This document shows, one piece after another, positions 2,383-29,282 of a stretch of 29,282 nt of DNA. The notes under the pieces are model-generated. The model was not told the DNA's origin and searched no databases. It was given only the letters and a program-made list of their open reading frames with translations. Each line of letters starts with the position of its first letter. Position 1 is the stretch's first letter. The stretch comes from an uncultured Gammaproteobacteria bacterium (GTDB taxonomy: Bacteria > Patescibacteriota > Patescibacteriia > UBA1558 > 2-01-FULL-52-15): the NCBI GenBank assembly GCA_964475975.1, contig CAYYYA010000001.1, forward strand, positions 29,254 through 58,535, in the 5' to 3' direction. Both the position numbers and the translations under genes were made by a program.

Positions 2383-3309
2383 CTACAACCAGCCTTTGCG
2401 TTTAAACCAGAGCAGTAAACCGCCGATGACAAAACAAACAATGCCCACAATGATCCAAAAATCATAGGGCTGACCGTTGATAGGATCATGGCTCGTATTC
2501 ATACCGAAGATACCTACAACTAAGTTGGCAGGGATGAGTACAACAGAGATAGTGGTAAGAATTTTGATAATATCATTCAACTTGAAGGAAATCATAGATT
2601 CATTGGTCTCATCAAAAGCTGTGATTGTTTCCATATGTGTCTGCAAAATATCCCAGATATCCTTACTACGCTCAAGCGCATTATTAAGATAGATACGCAT
2701 CTCACCCGGCTCAAAATAGCTATTATTAACAGCCATCAATTTTTTGATGATATTTTTGTGCGAGTTCATGATACGCCGAAAAGCCACGATATTTCGTTTT
2801 ATTATCAGAATCTCTCGTACCATCCGTCGTTCATTACCGGCGAAGATTTGGTTTTCTATATTTTCAATATCGAGGGTAATGTGATCCAGCATCGGGAAGG
2901 TGGCGTTTTGCAATCTATGGATTATTTCGTTTAAAAGTCCAACAGCATGATCAGCCATATAGAGCTTTTGGAGATGTTTGTCACGATAGCAATCATTAAA
3001 AAAAGAGTCCAAAACCTCTAAATGCCCGTCTCCGATGGTTATCAAATACTTATCCCCAATGAAAAAATCTATTTCCGCTGCTTTTACTCCGCGATCTTCA
3101 CGATCATAATAAGCGAAGAGAAGGATCATGAATAAGTATTCAGGGTACTCGTCTAACTTTGGATGAAGTGAGACTTTTTTCGCATCAACAATGTCCAGTG
3201 GATGAAACTGATATTTTTCTTGTAAATATTTCAAATCACTGTCTGTCGGTTTGCGCGCATGAATCCATGTCAGGGATTGAAAATGAATTTCTTTGAGATT
3301 AGTAATCAT
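2383..3309 (-). CDS. corA: CorA-family Mg2+/Co2+ transporter
   Basis: GMN signature (GIFGMN) between two C-terminal TM helices, FHPLDIVD and HPKLDEY N-terminal motifs; 308 aa. Confidence 0.93.
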   Translation of the reverse strand: MITNLKEIHFQSLTWIHARKPTDSDLKYLQEKYQFHPLDIVDAKKVSLHPKLDEYPEYLFMILLFAYYDREDRGVKAAEIDFFIGDKYLITIGDGHLEVLDSFFNDCYRDKHLQKLYMADHAVGLLNEIIHRLQNATFPMLDHITLDIENIENQIFAGNERRMVREILIIKRNIVAFRRIMNSHKNIIKKLMAVNNSYFEPGEMRIYLNNALERSKDIWDILQTHMETITAFDETNESMISFKLNDIIKILTTISVVLIPANLVVGIFGMNTSHDPINGQPYDFWIIVGIVCFVIGGLLLWFKRKGWL

Positions 3310-3318
3310 ACTAACAAG

Positions 3319-3361
3319 ATTATATCATAAAACAACGCAATCGTATATTATATGGTATAAT
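3319..3361. promoter_or_regulatory. Back-to-back extended -10 promoters for corA and the 3368 gene
   Basis: Minus strand TGaTATAAT (hexamer 3319-3324) lies 9 nt before the corA ATG; plus strand TGgTATAAT (hexamer 3356-3361) lies 6 nt before ATG 3368. Confidence 0.55.
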
Positions 3362-3367
3362 ATAATC

Positions 3368-3823
3368 ATGTCAGAACAAGTATTTGAACCCTCGCTGCGA
3401 CCAGAATTACCGCCGACTCCAGAACAACAAAGCGAACAACCTCAGGTAGCGACGTCAGAGCAACAGGTGCCGAGTATAGATGTGAAATCACCTGTGATAT
3501 CTCCATCGCAATCTCGTGCGCCTGTTTTACCTAAGGATAAAGATCCGCAGCTCGTTGAGATCGAGTCTATTTTGTCGGACGGGCTCGATCAGGCTTATAT
3601 TTCGTTAACGCTAGATAAACGGCAGCAATTTCGTACTGAAGGGGAAATCTTGGCTCGTACTATTCAGTCAATGATTCAAAGCGGCAAAGTAAATATCAAA
3701 AAAATTAGGAATTTAATCATTCGATGGTTGAGAGTTATTCCAGGTGTTAATCGTTATTTTTTAGAACAGGAAGCCAAGATTAAAACTGATAGAATCTCAG
3801 AGATGAAGTCAGACTCCGTATGA
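3368..3823 (+). CDS. Hypothetical protein, translationally coupled to the downstream ATPase
   Basis: Likely start is ATG 3368 (MSEQVFEP), just after a -10 box. Pro/Gln-rich N-terminus and a helical C-terminal domain (WLRVIPGVNRYFLEQEAKIKTD). ATGA overlap with the next gene. Confidence 0.75.
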   Translation: MSEQVFEPSLRPELPPTPEQQSEQPQVATSEQQVPSIDVKSPVISPSQSRAPVLPKDKDPQLVEIESILSDGLDQAYISLTLDKRQQFRTEGEILARTIQSMIQSGKVNIKKIRNLIIRWLRVIPGVNRYFLEQEAKIKTDRISEMKSDSV

Positions 3824-6336
3824 TGTTACAAGCTCCCATTATTATTAACACTCAGCCGAGTGGCACGGACTTTATATTTCTGCCGTATATCTTAGGCTTG
3901 TTAGCTACGGTTATTGTATTGTGGGTACTATTTTTGATTGCTCGATTATTCCTGAAACGCGAACCAAAGCTAAAGATTTTTCTCCTGACGGTGCCAAAAT
4001 ATGATTCTCTCAGTCAAGCGGAGAATGAAGCGGCTCAGCATATAAAAGAACAGCTGTCTCACGTTGAGAATCTGTTTGCTGCCTTAGGGGCCTTACGAGC
4101 TGAAGGTGGATGGAAGGCTTGGCTCTTCGGACGGCAAGATTATTTTGCTCTGGAGATAGTTGCACGTCAGGGAGAGATTTCCTTCTATTGCGGTGTTAGT
4201 GAACCGCAGGTAGAGTTTTTTATCCATGTGCTGCAGTCAGTACATCCAAATGTGCATTACCAAGAAGTTGCGGACTATAATATTTTCCCGCCGCAGGGAT
4301 TTGTTGCTTGCAGTTATCTTAAGTTGAGTCGTGATGTGATGTTTCCGATTAAGACGTATCAGTTATTTGATTTTGATCCCTTAGAGACATTAACAAATGT
4401 GTTGAGCAAGCTAGAAACTGGCGAGAGCTTAGTCATACAATACATTATCCGTTCTGCACACCGCGTCTGGCATCAGCGTGGCGTGAAAACGGCCAAAGCT
4501 TTGAATAGTGGTAAAGGATTAAAAGAGGCAATGGCCGGACAAAGCTCGCAGCAGTCTATGGTTGGTAAGGGTTTGTCTAGTGTTTTTTCTACTGTTCTAA
4601 CAACCACACGTAGTCAGTCAGAGAAGCCAAAGCCAGGTGAGCAACCGAAAGAACCAAAAGTTGCTTCACAGCTGGAGATTCAAATGGCTAAGGCTCTAGA
4701 GGAGAAAGCTAATAAAGCTGGTTTGGACGTTAATATTCGCTTAATCAGTGTCTCAACCAACAAAGTGCACGTTGATGCTAATCTCCGAGGATTAATCAAT
4801 GCCTATGGTCAGTTTAATATTTATGAAACAGGTAATAGCTTCCGTGCCAAACAGCTACATTCGCGCGACCGTTTGATTAAGGATTTTATTTATCGCCGTT
4901 TTGATCAGAGCGCACTTTGTCTATTCAACGCAGAAGAGATGGTAGGTTTGTGGCATCTGCCGGGTGCAACGATTGCGACTCCGAATATTCGGTGGTTGGA
5001 AGCTCGTAGCGCGCCACCGCCACGCGACTTGCCGACGAGAGGACTATTATTGGGCCACTCTGTGTACCGTGGCCAGAGCTTCCCTGTGCGTATGAAGGAT
5101 GAAGATAGGAGACGTCATACCTATATCATCGGTCAAACCGGTACGGGTAAGACGGTATTGATGGGTAATTTGATGTTGCAAGATATTCAAGCGGGGAAAG
5201 GCTGTTGTCTGATAGACCCTCACGGTGATTTGGTAGAGGCGCTTCTCGGATTGATACCACCGGATCGTGAGAAAGATGTTATTGTTTTTGACCCGTCAGA
5301 CACCTCACGGCCAATGGGACTTAACATGCTGGAATTCTTCAACGCAGATCAGAAAACATTAGTCATCAATGAGATGATTAATATCTTTGATAAGTTGTAT
5401 GATCTGAAAAAAACGGGCGGTCCGATCTTTGAACAATATATGCGCAACACCTTACTCCTGATGATGGAGGACGTGGAATCTGGCTGTAGTTTGATGGAAG
5501 TGGCTAAAGTGCTGGCCGATGAGAATTTCCGTAAATATAAATTAAGCAAAGCTACCAATCCAGTGGTCCGTGATTTTTGGCTCAAAGAAGCGCATAAAGC
5601 TGGCGGTGAGGCATCACTGGCCAATATGGTACCGTATATCACCAGTAAGCTGACGCAGTTCACTGCCAATGATATCATGCGACCAATCATTGCTCAGCAG
5701 ACGAGCTCCTTCAATTTCCGAGACATAATGGATCAAAGGAAGATTTTATTAGTCAATTTATCAAAAGGTAAAATTGGTGAGTTGAACAGCAACCTATTAG
5801 GTTTGATAATTGTTGGTAAAATATTAATCGCTGCTTTATCTCGCGTTGACACAGCAGAAGAGGAGCGAGCTGATTTTTATCTTTATATTGATGAGTTCCA
5901 AAACTTCCTAACGGACAGTATTGCTGTTATACTATCTGAAGCGCGAAAGTATCGTTTGAATCTGACGATGGCTCATCAATATATCAGTCAGTTGGTACGA
6001 GACGGTGATACCAAGATTCGAGATGCTGTTTTCGGAAATGTCGGTACGAAGATTGCGTTTCGTATTGGCGCCGAGGATGCTGAAACATTGAAAAAAGAAT
6101 TTACTCCTGTTTTTAGTGACTACGACCTCTTGAATATTTCCAAAAATAATGCTTATATTAAGTTGTTGATTGATAATCAAAATCCACCGGCATTTAATAT
6201 TAAATTAGAACCGCCGAAGAAAGGTGATCCGCAAATAGCTACTCGCTTAAAAGAACAGTCACGTATACAATACGGTAGACCTCGTGAAGAAGTAGAGCAA
6301 GAGATTATCAAACGTTCCGGAATGATAGTGAGCTAA
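3820..6336 (+). CDS. Membrane-anchored VirD4/TraD/HerA-like P-loop ATPase (type IV coupling protein-like)
   Basis: N-terminal TM helix; RRRHTYIIGQTGTGKT (Walker A), LIDPHGDL, LYIDEFQNF (Walker B), SEARKYRLNLTMAHQ; 838 aa. Confidence 0.85.
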   Translation: MMLQAPIIINTQPSGTDFIFLPYILGLLATVIVLWVLFLIARLFLKREPKLKIFLLTVPKYDSLSQAENEAAQHIKEQLSHVENLFAALGALRAEGGWKAWLFGRQDYFALEIVARQGEISFYCGVSEPQVEFFIHVLQSVHPNVHYQEVADYNIFPPQGFVACSYLKLSRDVMFPIKTYQLFDFDPLETLTNVLSKLETGESLVIQYIIRSAHRVWHQRGVKTAKALNSGKGLKEAMAGQSSQQSMVGKGLSSVFSTVLTTTRSQSEKPKPGEQPKEPKVASQLEIQMAKALEEKANKAGLDVNIRLISVSTNKVHVDANLRGLINAYGQFNIYETGNSFRAKQLHSRDRLIKDFIYRRFDQSALCLFNAEEMVGLWHLPGATIATPNIRWLEARSAPPPRDLPTRGLLLGHSVYRGQSFPVRMKDEDRRRHTYIIGQTGTGKTVLMGNLMLQDIQAGKGCCLIDPHGDLVEALLGLIPPDREKDVIVFDPSDTSRPMGLNMLEFFNADQKTLVINEMINIFDKLYDLKKTGGPIFEQYMRNTLLLMMEDVESGCSLMEVAKVLADENFRKYKLSKATNPVVRDFWLKEAHKAGGEASLANMVPYITSKLTQFTANDIMRPIIAQQTSSFNFRDIMDQRKILLVNLSKGKIGELNSNLLGLIIVGKILIAALSRVDTAEEERADFYLYIDEFQNFLTDSIAVILSEARKYRLNLTMAHQYISQLVRDGDTKIRDAVFGNVGTKIAFRIGAEDAETLKKEFTPVFSDYDLLNISKNNAYIKLLIDNQNPPAFNIKLEPPKKGDPQIATRLKEQSRIQYGRPREEVEQEIIKRSGMIVS

Positions 6337-8595: not shown

Positions 8596-8649
8596 TTTTT
8601 TATATTTGTGGTCTTGTTTTTAAGACCAAATATGAAGTATACTTATGCC

Positions 8650-11600
8650 ATGAATACAACATTTTTAAATACAACAGAGCCGATAAATGCTTCAGGCCCT
8701 GTCGGTCAAATACCAACCAAGCCACATACTAAAAAAGCCGTGCTGGTTGGCATTATGGCTCTCATAGGTCTCTGTCTCATAGCAGGGATTTATTATTTTT
8801 TTACAGCAGTTCGGCCAAATCATCTCCCTCCACTGCAAGCTCGTGGTGAAGTTGTTATTGTAGCGGAGCAGAAAGATTCTACCGGAATTGATCCGGCCAC
8901 ACATTTTACTGTTGGTACTATTAAAGAAGTAGATACAGAACAGCTAAAAAAAGCCATTTCCATCAATCCTCCAGTTGATTTTGCCCTAAAAAAAGAACCG
9001 AAACGAACAGCAGGCACTTTTGATCTGATTCGTAGAGCCTTAGCGCAAGGCGATTTACGAGAATTGGCTTATACCTATACCCTCACACCTGCCACTACCT
9101 TAAATCCTGATACTGTGTATGCGTTGGCCGTGCATGACTCTGCAATTGCTAGTGACGATTATAGCTTTGCTTTTCAGGTACGCTCAGGTTTCAAAATTAC
9201 CGCTACGCATCCCCGAGATAAAGTCGCTCAGATTCCAGTCAATACAGGTATAGAGATTACCTTTAACCGCTTTGAATTAAAAGACCCTGAGAAATTTATC
9301 ACTATCGAACCAGCAGTTAAGGGTTCTTTTTCGGTGCGAAGAGATACGGTAGTTTTTGTACCAGAAAAGCTTAACCCAGGAACTATATATACAATTCATG
9401 TGAGTAAGGATCTGCAGACAGTTGGATCAGCCGAAACGTTAGGACAGGACTATAGCTTTGCCTTCGAGACAGCCGACATAAATCAGCGCGAAGGATCAGT
9501 AGCCTATTTCAATTTTGGTCGTGAAGTGGTTGATATTTTGCCGGGGAAAAAACCGGTGCTATCGTTCTATGCCACCAACATTGCTGATAATCAATTTCAA
9601 GCTTCACTCTACAGAGTAAAATCAGTAGATGATTTTACTGATTCGTATATCAAGAGTCGCACGTGGGATTTAGGTTGGTCGTATTATTACAACCGAACAG
9701 GTCAATTGAATGTCAATCCAGACGAATCGTTGAAGGTCGCTAGCTTTGACCCAACAGTTGTGACAGACGGCTATCAAAAGTATCTAGAGTTACCAGAAAG
9801 TTTGACTGAAGGTTTTTATCTTTTTAAAGTACAGGCCAAAGGACTCACTCGGTGGGCGTGGCTTCAAGTTACCCCATTTGATTATTACTTTACCCTCAGT
9901 CAAGAGCGGGGATTGGTTTGGTTGTACGACAATACTTCGCGCCAACCAGTGTCCGGGGCTGATATAGCTTTAATGCAAACGGGTGGACAATCAGTTAATA
10001 TCAAAAAAACTGATGATCAGGGTTTGGTAGATTTTCCGTTACCCCCAAGTCTCTTGGCTACAACTGCTGTGCCTAAATTTTTTGAAATAAATAAGGGAAA
10101 CTCGACGAGAGCGATTTTGATACGAGATCGTTGGGGTTATGGTTCTGGTATAGCATCCGGCGACGGGTACTGGGACTCGCTACGTACAGATCGTTACGTT
10201 TATCAACTGAGTGATAAGATAAATTATTGGGGTATTATCAAGGGTAGGTCAGAGGACTTACGGCAACAAAAAGTAACTGTCGCTCTCTATCCCGGATATT
10301 TCTATGGTTTCTATGATACTTGGGGTTCTCCTTCTGATAGTTCTAAGGCTTTGGTAAAGCAAGAGGTAATGATTTCTGGATATGATACTATTGAAGGCCA
10401 GCTTAATTTTACAGGAGTTGCTCCAGGGACATATCAAGTTGTGGTATTGCAGGGTGAAAAAGTACTCAGTCAGCGTAGTATTGAGATTCAGGCTTTTAGT
10501 AAACCAGCTTATCAGATAATGGTGACGCCGTCGAAACATGTAGCTTTTGCTGATGAGGAGTTGAAGTTTGATGTTAAGGCTGAGTTATTTGACGGAACGC
10601 CAGCGGCTAATGTTGAACTTAAGTATGATTTTTATTGGGCTGGTAATCAATCTGGCAGGATAAAGCTTGATAATCGAGGTGAAGGAGTGATCCGGTTTAC
10701 ACCTGCCTACATTCCTGAGTCGCCAGAAGGATATGACGGCTATCCACGGTCTTTGACTCTTAATATTAACGCTGTTAAAGCTGAAGAAGGAAGCATATAT
10801 GCTGATAGTAATGTTTGGGTTTTTGGGCCGAAGGTTTTACTCCAAGTCAGCGGACAAGACACAGGAGGAGAAACGAGAACACTAACAGCTAAGGTAAACA
10901 ATGTGACCCTCGGTGACGGATCGCAGGAGTATTCATATAATTCAAATGAATTTATAGGAGGTCCTGCAGTAAATAAAACCGTAAAGGCGCAGGTTATTAA
11001 ACGCACCTATATCAAACAAGAAACTGGTCAACATTATGACCCTGTCTATAAATTAACCTATAAGACGTATAACTATACTTTCCGAGATGATGTTATTCGT
11101 CGGGAGACGGGCACAACAAATAGTGCTGGTGAGTGGTCATTGGTTCAATCGTTTCCCAAGGAAGATATGGTGACGTATTTTGTCAAAATGGAAACAGCTG
11201 ACTCCCAAGGAAAGGTTGATTACGCTAATTACTCTATTTGGAATTTTGATACCAATAATCCTGCGCCATCTACCGTGGAATTACAGTTCTCAGGCCAAAC
11301 TGCAAATAATGAGAAAGCATTTGCTCTCAACTCTCCGATAGACATTCAGGTCAAACGCGTAGGCGTAGCCAACGATCAGCCAGTTCTGTGGTATCGATAC
11401 CAGAATTCTTTAACTGCTAGTGGCGTTATTAAGAATAATTCAATTATTGATAAATTTGTTGACTCTTATGCGCCGAATATACGCTATCGTGCCGTTGTTT
11501 ATGGCCAGCAAGGTTTCTCTGAGTCACAAGAACTTGGCGCTGTATTACAAACAGCGGATAAGACTCTAGATATCTCAATAACAAGTGATAAAGCTAGTTA

Positions 11601-14118
11601 CAGACCGAAAGAAACAGTAAATTTAACGGTAGCAGTTAAAGATAAGAATAACGTAGGGGGAATAGCAGAGTTAAATATTGCAGCTGTTGATGAAGCGCTG
11701 TTTCATGTTTTGCCAGAGTACTGGCAAGAAAATTTAGCTTCTAGTTTATATCGGAAGATCTATGTTACACCGCTGACCGGATGGTCGCGTCTTGATACTT
11801 CACGCCAAGATTTGAGCGGTGCAGAAAAGGGAGGTTGTTTCACTGGAGACACGCCTATTATAATGGCAGATGGAAAAAAGAAAAAAATTCAGGATATTAA
11901 TCCTGGTGATATGATTGCCACCTTTGCTTCTGATCAGAATCATAATATAGAGACGGCAGTGGTCCAGGGCGTGTCGTCGCACCAGGTAGCTGATTATCTG
12001 ATTATCAACAGGGAGCTAAAGGTCACCCGGGAACACCCACTCTATATTAATAATCAGTGGACAGTGGCCGGAGCCGCTAAGCTGGGCGATGAATTGCTTC
12101 GGGCAGATGGATCGTACGTTGGTATTACCAGTATCAAACAGGTGAAAGCTCCTGGCACGTGGGTATATAACATGACTGTTGGTACTTATCATACGTATTT
12201 AGCTGACGGCTTCTATGCTCATAATGCTGAAAAAGGCGGTTCACCTCGCGCTGACTTTGTTGATGCTCCATTATTCAGAAGCCTACGTACAGATAGTACT
12301 GGAACAGCTAAACTTTCATTTCAAGCACCTGATAATATTACTTCTTGGAGAGTGACTGCTCTGGCATACCAGTCTCAGAGTATAAGCGCTGGTGAACAGT
12401 CAAAGTTAATACCCGTTACATTACCGTTTTTCGTTGACGTTGTTAGCTCGCCAACTTTTTTGACCGGAGATCAACCTCAGATTACAGCCCGACTATTTGG
12501 CACAGCCTATGATTCTAATAAGCCGATTGATCTATCCGCCAACAGCTCTAGTCTAAATTTGCAAACCGGTCAAACCACAATAGCTCAGTTTTCTAGAATA
12601 CCACTAGGTAGAATGGTGGCAGGAGAACATGAAGTAACTGTGCGGGCACAGCAGGGTAAGCTAGCTGATGCGGTAACGCGTAAGATTAATGTCGTTGACA
12701 GCTATTTCAAAACAGTTGTCGCTTCTAATTACCTTCTGACTAATCCAGACATTAAAGTTAAAGGTAATGATAAAGGCTTCACCACAATAAAGTTTGTTGA
12801 TCAAGGGAAAGGTAAGTATTTTTATCCTTTGTATTATCGCTCGACCCCAAGTATTCGTTTAGATGATACAGCTGCAAGTATTCTGGCGAGCGATATCCTC
12901 CATTCGGATTTTGATCAACTTGAGACAGATCGATCAAACGTATTGAACTATCAATTAGAAAACGGCGGACTAGCGCAGTTTATCTACTCTTCCGCCGACA
13001 CCGCCGTATCAGCCTTGGTTGCAGATGCTATACCGGATCGTTTCGGCCAGGAGGCTCTTGTCGGTTATTTCCAGGACCAACTGCGAACGCAGGATGTTGA
13101 TGGCATTGTCAGATTGCAGGCTCTGTACGGATTAGCCTCTTTGAAACAGCCGGTACTGACAGAATTGCAGACGATTGATAGCTCACGACTTGATTTTGAT
13201 CACTCGTTATATTTGGCTTTAGCTTTAGCTAAAGCTGGTGATTGGGAGTCAGCTCGTACAATCTACCGTACTACTATTCGACCGGCTCTTACCTTCGTGG
13301 ATGATCAAGCTTGGCTGACTAACCAAAAAGATGGAGATTTGCAAGCGAAGAAAACTGCACTGGTTGCGGTATTAGCAGGTCATATTCGTGAACGTGATGA
13401 TATTGATGACCTGTGGCGTTATATTGATAGTCATAATCCAACCTCTGACAGGGACAGTTTAGAAGAAGTTGTGGTCTTGAAAGATTTATTGACAATGACA
13501 ACTCCTAAATTAGCGAGCCTTACTTATACTGCTGGCACCAAGAAAGATACTTTTGAGCTGAGACCAGGTGAGAGTAAAACAATTAGACTGACGCCTGAAG
13601 AGCTGAAAGCGCTGACGTTCTCAGGTATATCTGGAGAACCTATGGCTATCAGCTATTACGATAACTATGGTAAACCGGAAGATATTAAGCAGGATAGCTC
13701 GATCTCGTTAACGAGAACTTATTCCGTAGATGGTAGAGAGACAAATACGTGGTCAGAGGGTGATATCGTCAAGATTACGTTACGTCCTCGGGTTAAAAAG
13801 AGCGTAAACAATGGCTATCAAATTACAGATTTCCTTCCGAGCGGCATCGTGCCAATCACCAACACGTATCAGCGAGGTCTAGGTGGTAGTGCTGATCCTT
13901 GTGATTCAACTTGGTATCCAATGACTATTCTACAGAATAGTATCAGCTTCACGTATCATTATTGGGAGCAGGCTCCAAAATGTTCTGATATGAGGATTAA
14001 TTATTATGCTCGGGTAGTAACTCCGGGAAATTATCGTGCTAATCCCGCTGTAATGCAGTCAAATGAGATTGGAACCAGTATAACTTTGACCAAAGAAAAT
14101 CGTGTTGAGATTAAATAA
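8650..14118 (+). CDS. Membrane-anchored alpha-2-macroglobulin-family protein with Ig-like domains and a Hint domain in the bait region; no CxEQ thioester
   Basis: Probable start ATG 8650 (TATACT 6 nt upstream; the ORF caller starts at 8608). N-terminal TM, two Ig-like repeats (HPRDKVAQIPVNTGIEITFN), MG domains (LRTDRYVYQLSDKINYWGII). AAVDEALF and RADF..RTDSTGTAKLSFQAPDNITSWRVTALA flank the bait region. QLENGG TED motif; C-terminal YYARVVTPGNYRANPA. Confidence 0.9.
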   Translation: MNTTFLNTTEPINASGPVGQIPTKPHTKKAVLVGIMALIGLCLIAGIYYFFTAVRPNHLPPLQARGEVVIVAEQKDSTGIDPATHFTVGTIKEVDTEQLKKAISINPPVDFALKKEPKRTAGTFDLIRRALAQGDLRELAYTYTLTPATTLNPDTVYALAVHDSAIASDDYSFAFQVRSGFKITATHPRDKVAQIPVNTGIEITFNRFELKDPEKFITIEPAVKGSFSVRRDTVVFVPEKLNPGTIYTIHVSKDLQTVGSAETLGQDYSFAFETADINQREGSVAYFNFGREVVDILPGKKPVLSFYATNIADNQFQASLYRVKSVDDFTDSYIKSRTWDLGWSYYYNRTGQLNVNPDESLKVASFDPTVVTDGYQKYLELPESLTEGFYLFKVQAKGLTRWAWLQVTPFDYYFTLSQERGLVWLYDNTSRQPVSGADIALMQTGGQSVNIKKTDDQGLVDFPLPPSLLATTAVPKFFEINKGNSTRAILIRDRWGYGSGIASGDGYWDSLRTDRYVYQLSDKINYWGIIKGRSEDLRQQKVTVALYPGYFYGFYDTWGSPSDSSKALVKQEVMISGYDTIEGQLNFTGVAPGTYQVVVLQGEKVLSQRSIEIQAFSKPAYQIMVTPSKHVAFADEELKFDVKAELFDGTPAANVELKYDFYWAGNQSGRIKLDNRGEGVIRFTPAYIPESPEGYDGYPRSLTLNINAVKAEEGSIYADSNVWVFGPKVLLQVSGQDTGGETRTLTAKVNNVTLGDGSQEYSYNSNEFIGGPAVNKTVKAQVIKRTYIKQETGQHYDPVYKLTYKTYNYTFRDDVIRRETGTTNSAGEWSLVQSFPKEDMVTYFVKMETADSQGKVDYANYSIWNFDTNNPAPSTVELQFSGQTANNEKAFALNSPIDIQVKRVGVANDQPVLWYRYQNSLTASGVIKNNSIIDKFVDSYAPNIRYRAVVYGQQGFSESQELGAVLQTADKTLDISITSDKASYRPKETVNLTVAVKDKNNVGGIAELNIAAVDEALFHVLPEYWQENLASSLYRKIYVTPLTGWSRLDTSRQDLSGAEKGGCFTGDTPIIMADGKKKKIQDINPGDMIATFASDQNHNIETAVVQGVSSHQVADYLIINRELKVTREHPLYINNQWTVAGAAKLGDELLRADGSYVGITSIKQVKAPGTWVYNMTVGTYHTYLADGFYAHNAEKGGSPRADFVDAPLFRSLRTDSTGTAKLSFQAPDNITSWRVTALAYQSQSISAGEQSKLIPVTLPFFVDVVSSPTFLTGDQPQITARLFGTAYDSNKPIDLSANSSSLNLQTGQTTIAQFSRIPLGRMVAGEHEVTVRAQQGKLADAVTRKINVVDSYFKTVVASNYLLTNPDIKVKGNDKGFTTIKFVDQGKGKYFYPLYYRSTPSIRLDDTAASILASDILHSDFDQLETDRSNVLNYQLENGGLAQFIYSSADTAVSALVADAIPDRFGQEALVGYFQDQLRTQDVDGIVRLQALYGLASLKQPVLTELQTIDSSRLDFDHSLYLALALAKAGDWESARTIYRTTIRPALTFVDDQAWLTNQKDGDLQAKKTALVAVLAGHIRERDDIDDLWRYIDSHNPTSDRDSLEEVVVLKDLLTMTTPKLASLTYTAGTKKDTFELRPGESKTIRLTPEELKALTFSGISGEPMAISYYDNYGKPEDIKQDSSISLTRTYSVDGRETNTWSEGDIVKITLRPRVKKSVNNGYQITDFLPSGIVPITNTYQRGLGGSADPCDSTWYPMTILQNSISFTYHYWEQAPKCSDMRINYYARVVTPGNYRANPAVMQSNEIGTSITLTKENRVEIK
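11836..12225 (+). other. Hint (intein-like, BIL/PT-HINT type) domain, 130 aa, inside the A2M protein
   Basis: Block A CFTGDTPIIMADG, block B LKVTREHPLYI (TxxH), block F/G VYNMTVGTYHTYLADGFYAHN. The +1 residue is Ala and there is no endonuclease domain. Confidence 0.92.
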
Positions 14119-14983
14119 GCAGAAACTACTTGTCGGAGGTTTATTGCTATTCATTATTATATTAGTCGTTTGGCGTCCTAGCGTCAGAAACGATTCGAAG
14201 CTTGTCCCGAAAAAAGCTAACTATCGGGTAGTCAACGATGGTGAGATGGTAACCGCTATAGAGCAGCTCAACCCTCTGACTAAAAGCACTGATTCTCCGC
14301 GGGTTTTTTTGGCTATTACATCACATCACATTCCCACTGCAGCCTATTTTATAGCCGATTTATTTCGTTATCTCTTGACCACTACCACAGCACACCCAAC
14401 GTTTATTGTTATTGGGCCTGATCATTATGAACGCTGTCCTTCCCGTGTAACTATTAGTAATCAGCCTTTTATTACCTCATTTGGCAAAGTTGACGTTGAT
14501 CAAGATATTTCTGAACGTTTGGGCTTGACGTTTGCTTATGAGACGAATGATTGTCTTGCGTCTGAACACGCTATAGCGACGGAAGCGCCCTTTATCGCTC
14601 GCACTTTCCCGCATTCAAAAATCGTGGGTATCACCTTGTCATCATCAGCCACCACAGAAGATATACAGACGTTAGCTGATGTATTGGATCAGATGAAAGA
14701 CAAAGTCATAATTTTGGAAAGTACAGATTTTTCTCATTATCTCCCTGTTGATCAAGCGCGCATGATAGATGATGAAACGGCTCAGATGATTAATGATTTA
14801 GACGTCGCAGCTATTACTTTGAAAAATTTAGATTCACCACCGACATTAAGATTGGTGATTGGCCTGGCTAAACGCTGGAATCTTAGACCAAAAATTTTGG
14901 AACAAAAGAATCTCTACGATCTTAATGGGCAGGCAGATAATACCACTGGTTATATCAATGCGGTTTTTGAGGAACAAGAGTAG
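14102..14983 (+). CDS. MEMO1 / AmmeMemoRadiSam protein B family protein with an N-terminal membrane anchor
   Basis: ITSHHIP, VIGPDHY, SEHAI and STDFSHY motifs; hydrophobic LLVGGLLLFIIILVVW; overlaps the A2M stop by 17 nt. Confidence 0.85.
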   Translation: MLRLNKQKLLVGGLLLFIIILVVWRPSVRNDSKLVPKKANYRVVNDGEMVTAIEQLNPLTKSTDSPRVFLAITSHHIPTAAYFIADLFRYLLTTTTAHPTFIVIGPDHYERCPSRVTISNQPFITSFGKVDVDQDISERLGLTFAYETNDCLASEHAIATEAPFIARTFPHSKIVGITLSSSATTEDIQTLADVLDQMKDKVIILESTDFSHYLPVDQARMIDDETAQMINDLDVAAITLKNLDSPPTLRLVIGLAKRWNLRPKILEQKNLYDLNGQADNTTGYINAVFEEQE

Positions 14984-29160: not shown

Positions 29161-29282
29161 ATGGACAGCAAAAAGATAAAATTACAAAGGATTCCTGGAG
29201 GCGGGAAGGGTATCGTGGCTAAGGCTTCGATTAAGAAAAATGAGATAATCGCTGACTTCGACGGTCCGATTTATCATTGGCA
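29161..29282 (+). CDS. SET-domain protein, 3'-truncated by the window edge
   Basis: MDSKKIKLQRIPGGGKGIVAKASIKKNEIIADFDGPIYHW matches the SET N-terminal pattern GxGv.A...I..ge.I..f.G; only 40 codons are visible. Confidence 0.6.
   Translation, partial: MDSKKIKLQRIPGGGKGIVAKASIKKNEIIADFDGPIYHW

Follow-up and report, generated by a model that had tools for sequence, protein, structure and literature searches.

Why should the same five residues, Ala-Glu-Lys-Gly-Gly (AEKGG), stand directly before and directly after a Hint domain in a bacterial surface protein? The question arises in a 29,282-nucleotide stretch of DNA from an uncultured, ultra-small bacterium placed by GTDB in the Patescibacteriota (positions 29,254 to 58,535 of contig CAYYYA010000001.1; hereafter "the window", meaning the whole stretch), where a gene on the forward strand (8608..14118) encodes an alpha-2-macroglobulin-like surface protein of 1836 residues with matches to the Pfam families Big_5, bMG3, A2M_BRD, A2M and bMG10. 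The Hint domain occupies residues 1077-1206 (130 residues; 11836..12225, on the forward strand like every other feature of this gene given below) and lies between the two AEKGG copies. A sequence-only reading of the window had taken the pair as a sign of selection on the peptide, and had suggested that a Gly-Gly thioester formed at the upstream copy could be resolved by an amine. Our answer, held with somewhat less than even confidence, is that the two copies mark the junctions of a Hint of the type-A bacterial intein-like (BIL) kind, long established directly after an ancient, conserved AExGG motif in a bait-like loop, and that this domain would form a thioester, undergo Asn cyclisation and leave the protein halves to be re-joined by an amine.

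The pair can be read directly from the window. The upstream copy (GCAGAAAAGGGAGGT; 11821-11835, residues 1072-1076, positions -5 to -1 of the N flank) and the downstream copy (GCTGAAAAAGGCGGT; 12226-12240, residues 1207-1211, positions +1 to +5 of the C flank) lie in the same frame of the open reading frame 8608..14118; between them, the Hint opens with TGT (Cys1077, 11836-11838) and closes with CATAAT (His1205-Asn1206, 12220-12225). As the sequence-only reading had stated, three of the five codons differ, every change being synonymous, and two are shared. Two independent draws from the gene's own codon usage would be expected to share 2.00 of the A-E-K-G-G codons; the observed number is 2, so that neither a recent duplication nor a gene conversion has left a trace. 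A pair born of a recent target-site duplication, of gene conversion or of an assembly artefact can be regarded as refuted, its chance being negligible: nothing beyond the pentapeptide identity in one sequence speaks for such an origin, the DNA copies differ as much as independent codon draws would, and the two-sided motif is present in more than 150 divergent clusters. Sameness of both sides is not enriched over consensus either. Identical flank pentapeptides were found in 18 of 154 Hint-bearing relatives, and all 18 belong to a subfamily of 69 of the form AE../.EK.. (the slash marking the Hint), in which random pairing would give 14.6 +/- 1.9. Hence the earlier claim divides: the peptide, not the DNA, is conserved and the codons behave as independent draws, whereas selection for the sameness of the two pentapeptides is not supported by the sequences. 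Between unrelated sequences, an identical pair would lie far outside what chance allows; among these relatives it is the outcome of two similar conserved motifs, and the pair of the window carries the consensus residue at both variable positions.

These figures derive from relatives gathered in two ways: a site-centred search returned about 92 proteins with a Hint in the same place, and a C-terminal query of 630 residues against 50%-identity representatives gave further ones. Named sources include Doudnabacteria, Spechtbacteria, Falkowbacteria, Woesebacteria, Peregrinibacteria and Microgenomates. The flank statistics refer to 154 resolved Hint-bearing sequences (three incomplete ones could not be resolved), and Arg1214 served as the anchor for every flank comparison. 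The first Cys and the terminal His-Asn occur in 154 of 154 Hints, the script that located the domains having searched for exactly those residues; the Hint is 126-131 residues long, with a single exception of 144. Upstream, Gly predominates at -6 (107/154), Ala at -5 (104/154) and Glu at -4 (109/154); position -3 is variable (G 59, K 43, R 14, E 12, M 11), and Gly returns at -2 (140/154) and at -1 (149/154), the latter carrying the predicted scissile carbonyl. Junction residues varying freely among homologues, an outcome that would have told against the earlier proposal, were thus not what was found. Downstream, position +1 is A (49), D (38), Q (29) or E (25), and Cys, Ser or Thr in only 7 of 154, so that the Ala1207 of the window, correctly described before as leaving no canonical +1 nucleophile, has a non-nucleophilic counterpart in the other 147. 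Lys is found at +2 or +3 in 150 of 154 (in the window at +3, Lys1209, 12232-12234) and at +1 or +6 in the other four; Asp or Glu precedes it in 127 and Gly-Gly follows it in 111. Therefore, the expectation of a KGG kept at both junctions was borne out for the upstream Gly-Gly and the downstream lysine, with its Gly-Gly in most cases, and failed for the upstream lysine, given the 43 of 154 at -3. A shifted junction, in which the second AEKGG would belong to the Hint and Ser1212 would be the true +1 residue, was also considered and rejected: position +6 is variable (G 57, R 22, S 16), its Ser being unconserved, and the His-Asn is invariant directly before the flank.

What kind of Hint stands between these flanks? 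Pfam matches it to PT-HINT (1.1e-10; 42.3 bits, above the cut-off of 27.7), to Vint (8.9e-9) and, more weakly, to Hint and intein models; NCBIfam detects the N- and C-terminal splicing regions of inteins, and no endonuclease domain was found in it. An AlphaFold2 model built on 64 homologues gives a predicted local distance difference test (pLDDT) score of about 97 across the domain (model residues 21-150) and of 47-57 across both flanks. In a fold search against the PDB, Tetrahymena BUBL1 BIL2 came first (6Y75/6TMM; E 7.5e-13, TM-score 0.81) and a Clostridium thermocellum BIL second (2LWY; TM-score 0.85), followed by mini-inteins and Hedgehog; the 50 listed of 66 matches at E <= 0.001 are all BIL domains, inteins, Hedgehog or Vint. 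A PDB sequence search returned the same order (BIL2, E 8e-8; C. thermocellum BIL, E 5e-6), and the nearest solved structure to the macroglobulin Hint is Tetrahymena BIL2. Cys1, block B Thr64 and His67 (Thr1140 and His1143, a Thr-x-x-His; 12025-12027 and 12034-12036) and the terminal His-Asn are conserved in 93, 90, 93 and 93 of 93 relatives, respectively; the block F His (His119, 12190-12192) is conserved too. The His-Asn end separates type A from type B BILs (PMC4031507). With Cys1077, the block B pair, His1205-Asn1206 and a +1 residue other than Cys, Ser or Thr, the domain is assigned by sequence and modelled fold to the type-A BILs, and autoprocessing is predicted.

Other classes of Hint share single traits with it. 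A canonical class 1 intein would differ in two respects, the Ala at +1 and an Asn in place of the block F Asp. Most class 1 inteins carry Asp at that block F position; in the macroglobulin Hint family, position 112 (12169-12171) is an invariant Asn (93/93). The Pfam match is to the pretoxin HINT of polymorphic toxins, but no toxin domain lies C-terminal to the Hint here: the protein continues with A2M, then a thioester-domain-like region and bMG10. A Hedgehog-type domain lacks the His-Asn end and continues into a sterol-recognition region, whereas this Hint ends in His-Asn and runs straight into the A2M domain; as for the BUBL type, the Gly-Gly is present, but the N flank is a low-confidence loop after the bait-region domain and no ubiquitin-like domain precedes it. 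Proteins such as this one are publicly annotated as "polymorphic toxin-type HINT domain-containing", a label that is misleading.

The second half of the answer concerns the site. The Hint lies in the bait loop, between the bait-region domain (A2M_BRD, residues 945-1032; 11440..11703) and the R..F.D...PDNITSW block that comes after the bait in all macroglobulins, whose start and the following A2M domain (residues 1226-1297) span 12247..12498; the region of the C flank matches eukaryotic A2M and TEP1. Relatives without a Hint, mostly from Bacillota/Clostridia together with proteins nested among those of Patescibacteria, had been expected to carry the motif only once, and they do: 160 of 198 contain a single copy of G-G-A-E-x-G-G-[E/G]-G-[G/D] at equal distance before the anchor Arg. 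In a 47-sequence alignment its Glu and the Gly matching -1 are invariant, and the spectrum at x (G 50, K 44, M 15, Q 10, C 8, R 7) is that of position -3 in Hint-bearing proteins; the motif falls in a loop of predicted disorder (pLDDT below 50) that connects well-folded domains. Since a single AExGG stands at the same site in Hint-less relatives, the N flank is the ancestral host motif in its native context with the Hint set directly after it, and the C flank replaces the [E/G]-G-[G/D] tail of the Hint-less motif. The loops of the nested Hint-less proteins read AExGGGGDGGGR, unlike the leftover of a precise Hint deletion, and thus the flanks changed either after loss or before gain of the domain. 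As observations in their own right, thioester-less macroglobulin-like proteins of Bacillota (e.g., P0095, residues 991-999) carry G-G-A-E-x-G-G-E-G-G, with the invariant Glu, at the expected bait position, and a strictly conserved motif inside a "bait" loop is unexpected.

If the N flank belongs to the host, the lysine of the C flank seems to belong to the Hint. In the tail after AExGG of Hint-less proteins, Lys reaches 2 of 160 at its best position (+5 downstream of the motif). When scored as any Lys among the last eight residues before the anchor Arg, it is present in 149 of 150 sequences with a Hint and in 38 of 192 without one, most of the 38 being the x of AEKGG in proteins with short tails. 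Well-supported independent contrasts amount to nine, of which about seven pair Lys with the Hint and none shows the reverse (median sign-test p 0.016), in a test that rests on a FastTree topology and on nine pairs only. A Lys at +2/+3, usually within [D/E]-K-G-G, thus tracks the presence of the Hint almost without exception. It could not be sustained as a general trait of PT-HINT domains: in eight PT-HINTs of polymorphic toxins, read from plasmids, no Gly-Gly precedes the initial Cys/Ser, the +1 residue is Cys or Thr in six, and Lys stands at +2/+3 in two; among other Hints in long proteins, Lys occurs near the C junction in three of four, a small sample. As those eight toxin Hints are devoid of the signature, it is specific to the macroglobulin Hints. 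If any lysine of a KGG acts at all, it would be the downstream one, nearly invariant at +2/+3, and not the variable one at -3.

From these elements the proposed course of events can be drawn. An N-to-S acyl shift at Cys1077 would turn the carbonyl of Gly1076 into a Gly-Gly thioester, and cyclisation of Asn1206 would release the C-terminal part. The thioester might then be resolved by an amine from the flexible C flank: either Lys1209 would attack with its epsilon-amine and give a Gly-Lys isopeptide like that of Tetrahymena BIL2, or Ala1207 would attack with its newly exposed alpha-amine and give a peptide bond, as has been proposed for type-A BILs; the Hint would be excised and the protein halves re-joined, with hydrolysis to a two-chain protein as the competing outcome. 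The residues required for both reactions are all conserved, and the flanks are flexible and Gly-rich. An N-terminal thioester, C-cleavage by Asn cyclisation and possible ligation by the freed amine have been described for type-A BILs (PMC4031507), and in BIL2 the Gly-Gly end of the N flank is reported to become linked, through an isopeptide bond, to a Lys that lies either in the downstream domain or in another protein (PMC8616854). By analogy, an enzyme-free "isopeptide splice", with the Gly-Gly thioester passed to the epsilon-amine of the conserved +2/+3 lysine or, in trans, to a lysine of another protein, is a conceivable outcome that we consider unlikely, though by no means far-fetched. Polymerisation, also raised by the sequence-only reading, is not supported: it would require an acceptor in the N fragment, and none is conserved.

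Besides the narrow base of the contrast test, several points weigh against re-joining. The lysine could instead aid Asn cyclisation or serve structure. Much of the flank conservation is probably a constraint of the host protein, AExGG being kept in Hint-less proteins as well. Furthermore, that BILs cleave, and sometimes splice, without a +1 nucleophile was rightly stated in the sequence-only reading, and it is mainly cleavage products that they yield (PMC7664689, PMC4031507). The latter point speaks for the main rival, which we consider possible yet doubtful: the Hint would cut both junctions, by thioester hydrolysis and Asn cyclisation, and leave two chains held together non-covalently. Complement C3 and C4 are cut into two chains by furin at the equivalent loop. 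Cleavage by the Hint might be an enzyme-free counterpart of that processing, or a self-cut of the bait that alters the conformation of the protein; the flanks would be explained by a host loop that requires AExGG and by small residues favouring both reactions. The conserved catalytic residues would serve the two cuts equally, and both the position in the bait loop between A2M_BRD and A2M and the predicted flexibility of the flanks agree with them. However, cleavage alone offers no account of a Lys kept at +2/+3 in 150 of 154 Hint-bearing proteins and missing at the matching position of Hint-less ones. Nor would the two chains be easily held: the host protein contains Cys only at residues 56, 1077, 1765 and 1792, leaving none available to tie them, and a C fragment of 630 residues would have to rely on non-covalent contacts with a protein anchored in the membrane (predicted N-terminal hydrophobic anchor, residues 44-66).

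Surface anchoring is in turn one of the arguments for a different fate of the thioester, in which a foreign nucleophile (for instance, an amine carried by a surface protein of a host cell, by peptidoglycan or by a protease that attacks) would take the Gly-Gly thioester of the anchored N fragment and the cell would be tethered covalently, much as in Hedgehog cholesterolysis or in ubiquitin-like conjugation. The junction, Gly-Gly followed by Cys-Phe, resembles the Hedgehog processing site, with a weak sequence match to Sonic hedgehog, and BIL2 does pass its N flank to other proteins (PMC8616854). In addition, the classical warhead of these proteins is missing: the CxEQ thioester has no occurrence anywhere in the 1836 residues, whose thioester-domain-like part contains a QLENGG region (12925..12990), and it is also absent from 83 of 93 close relatives. 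We nonetheless regard this reading as improbable, given that it leaves the conserved terminal His-Asn and the downstream lysine without a role, that the gene neighbours (dnaX and a Memo-like gene) suggest no partner, and that a Hint and an intact CxEQ stand together in at least nine distant relatives, which does not fit a simple replacement warhead. One such relative, from Microgenomates, is a classical macroglobulin with thioester domain (TED), CxEQ and Hint (our locus L004, 6001-12222), adjoined by a PBP1C-like gene (Transgly, Transpeptidase and BiPBP_C; 3009-5468 of the same locus); consequently, the Hint occurs in both types of macroglobulin. The idea that the Hint thioester replaces a lost CxEQ was weakened as a strict rule by this coexistence of Hint and CxEQ/TED in distant relatives near a PBP1C-like gene.

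Whatever the chemistry, why is the Hint there at all? On a host tree built from the C-terminal regions of 345 sequences its presence changes about 19 times, with Hint-less proteins nested within Hint-bearing clades about 17 times, and among 301 sampled genomes of the phylum the macroglobulin-like protein was found in 28, about 18 with and about 9, roughly a third, without the Hint as judged by the extent of the match. Given this patchy distribution, the macroglobulin can work without the Hint, which may be tolerated and not needed; this too counts against the re-joining we favour. At its extreme, the domain would be a passenger, i.e., a tolerated selfish insert resembling a mini-intein, whose catalytic residues would be kept only because a Hint left unexcised would be harmful to the host, and whose flank pattern, lysine included, would have no function of its own. 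Apart from the scattered distribution and the abundance of Hint-less relatives, a slightly raised G+C content at third codon positions speaks for it (0.438 for the Hint, 11836-12225, against 0.344 +/- 0.044 and a maximum of 0.431 for 130-codon windows of the rest of the gene), in itself a mild compositional difference. We nevertheless give this reading little weight. The domain has no endonuclease, and it is the only PT-HINT domain in its genome. Across more than 150 clusters no other part of the protein is as well conserved (mean pairwise identity 45% against 30% elsewhere; correlation between Hint and host identity, r = 0.69). Moreover, a single clade for the Hints of classical-type hosts was not rejected in an approximately unbiased (AU) test (p 0.78), and the lysine tracks the Hint over independent contrasts, which suggests a constraint tied to the chemistry of the Hint. 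The passenger reading addresses why the Hint persists, and it is compatible with any chemical outcome. The Hint may also have passed horizontally from one type of macroglobulin to another; the Hint tree is weakly resolved, and the above AU test did not reject one clade for the Hints of classical-type hosts.

As to the surroundings, the source genome is 0.93 Mb in size and 94% complete, and the homologues that bear names come from Patescibacteria. The Memo-like gene (14102-14983) overlaps the stop codon of the macroglobulin gene, as it does in a Doudnabacteria homologue (our locus L002, 11543-12433), and no pbpC partner lies beside the macroglobulin gene in the window. Two genes upstream of dnaX, an 838-residue protein with type IV secretion coupling-protein domains (TrwB/TraG-like) is encoded at 3820-6336.

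Type-A BILs are known, yet their natural products and purpose are largely unsettled. The family provides more than 150 divergent cases from nature, all at the same fixed position, together with a matched Hint-less set and a flank residue, the lysine at +2/+3, that follows the Hint. If the lysine route were true, it would represent an ATP-independent Gly-Gly-to-Lys ligation in bacteria and a compact new tool for protein ligation; an isopeptide splice would be a bacterial counterpart of ubiquitin-like conjugation that matures or arms a macroglobulin-like surface protein. To our knowledge, such a Gly-Gly-to-Lys conjugation by a Hint-type domain is so far known only for ciliate BIL2. If cleavage were true, the macroglobulin would sever its trigger loop by itself.

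No paper linking macroglobulins with Hint or intein-like domains was found in the literature searched; what is added here is the two-sided junction signature in numbers, the ancestral motif that Hint-less proteins carry once, the association of the downstream lysine with the Hint, and BIL2 as the nearest solved relative. With type-A BILs (C. thermocellum 2LWY; PT-HINT, PF07591), the domain shares the mini Hint fold, Cys1, the block B TxxH, the terminal His-Asn, the lack of a +1 nucleophile and of an endonuclease, and a secreted or surface host protein; it differs in its host and site, an alpha-2-macroglobulin-like bait loop at a conserved host motif. From the eight polymorphic-toxin PT-HINTs examined it is set apart by the pattern GG/C...HN/x[E]KGG (slashes marking the junctions), absent from those eight, and by the lack of a toxin domain downstream. 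BUBL1 BIL2 of Tetrahymena thermophila (6TMM, 6Y75) likewise has an N flank ending in Gly-Gly (RGG in the crystal construct), but its flanks are folded eukaryotic ubiquitin-like domains, whereas those of the macroglobulin Hint are short, flexible stretches within the loop of a bacterial protein and the isopeptide is only conjectural. Hedgehog/Hog proteins have in common with it the Hint fold, the Gly-Gly/Cys-Phe junction and a Gly-carbonyl thioester, predicted here, that is resolved by a nucleophile other than a +1 side chain; unlike the macroglobulin Hint, they possess no terminal His-Asn or C-terminal cleavage and do possess a sterol-recognition region, and they match its fold less closely (6TYY at rank 23, 1AT0 at rank 34). 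Finally, the succession of macroglobulin domains, bait-region domain, A2M, thioester-domain-like region and bMG10 is the architecture of bacterial alpha-2-macroglobulins, both of the E. coli YfhM/ECAM type accompanied by PBP1C and of the thioester-less YfaS type. In comparison with the YfhM/ECAM type, the host protein carries no CxEQ and is followed by the Memo-like gene rather than by pbpC; and at the bait position, which is also the two-chain cut site of C3 and C4, it carries a predicted self-processing domain instead of, or beside, the bait for proteases.

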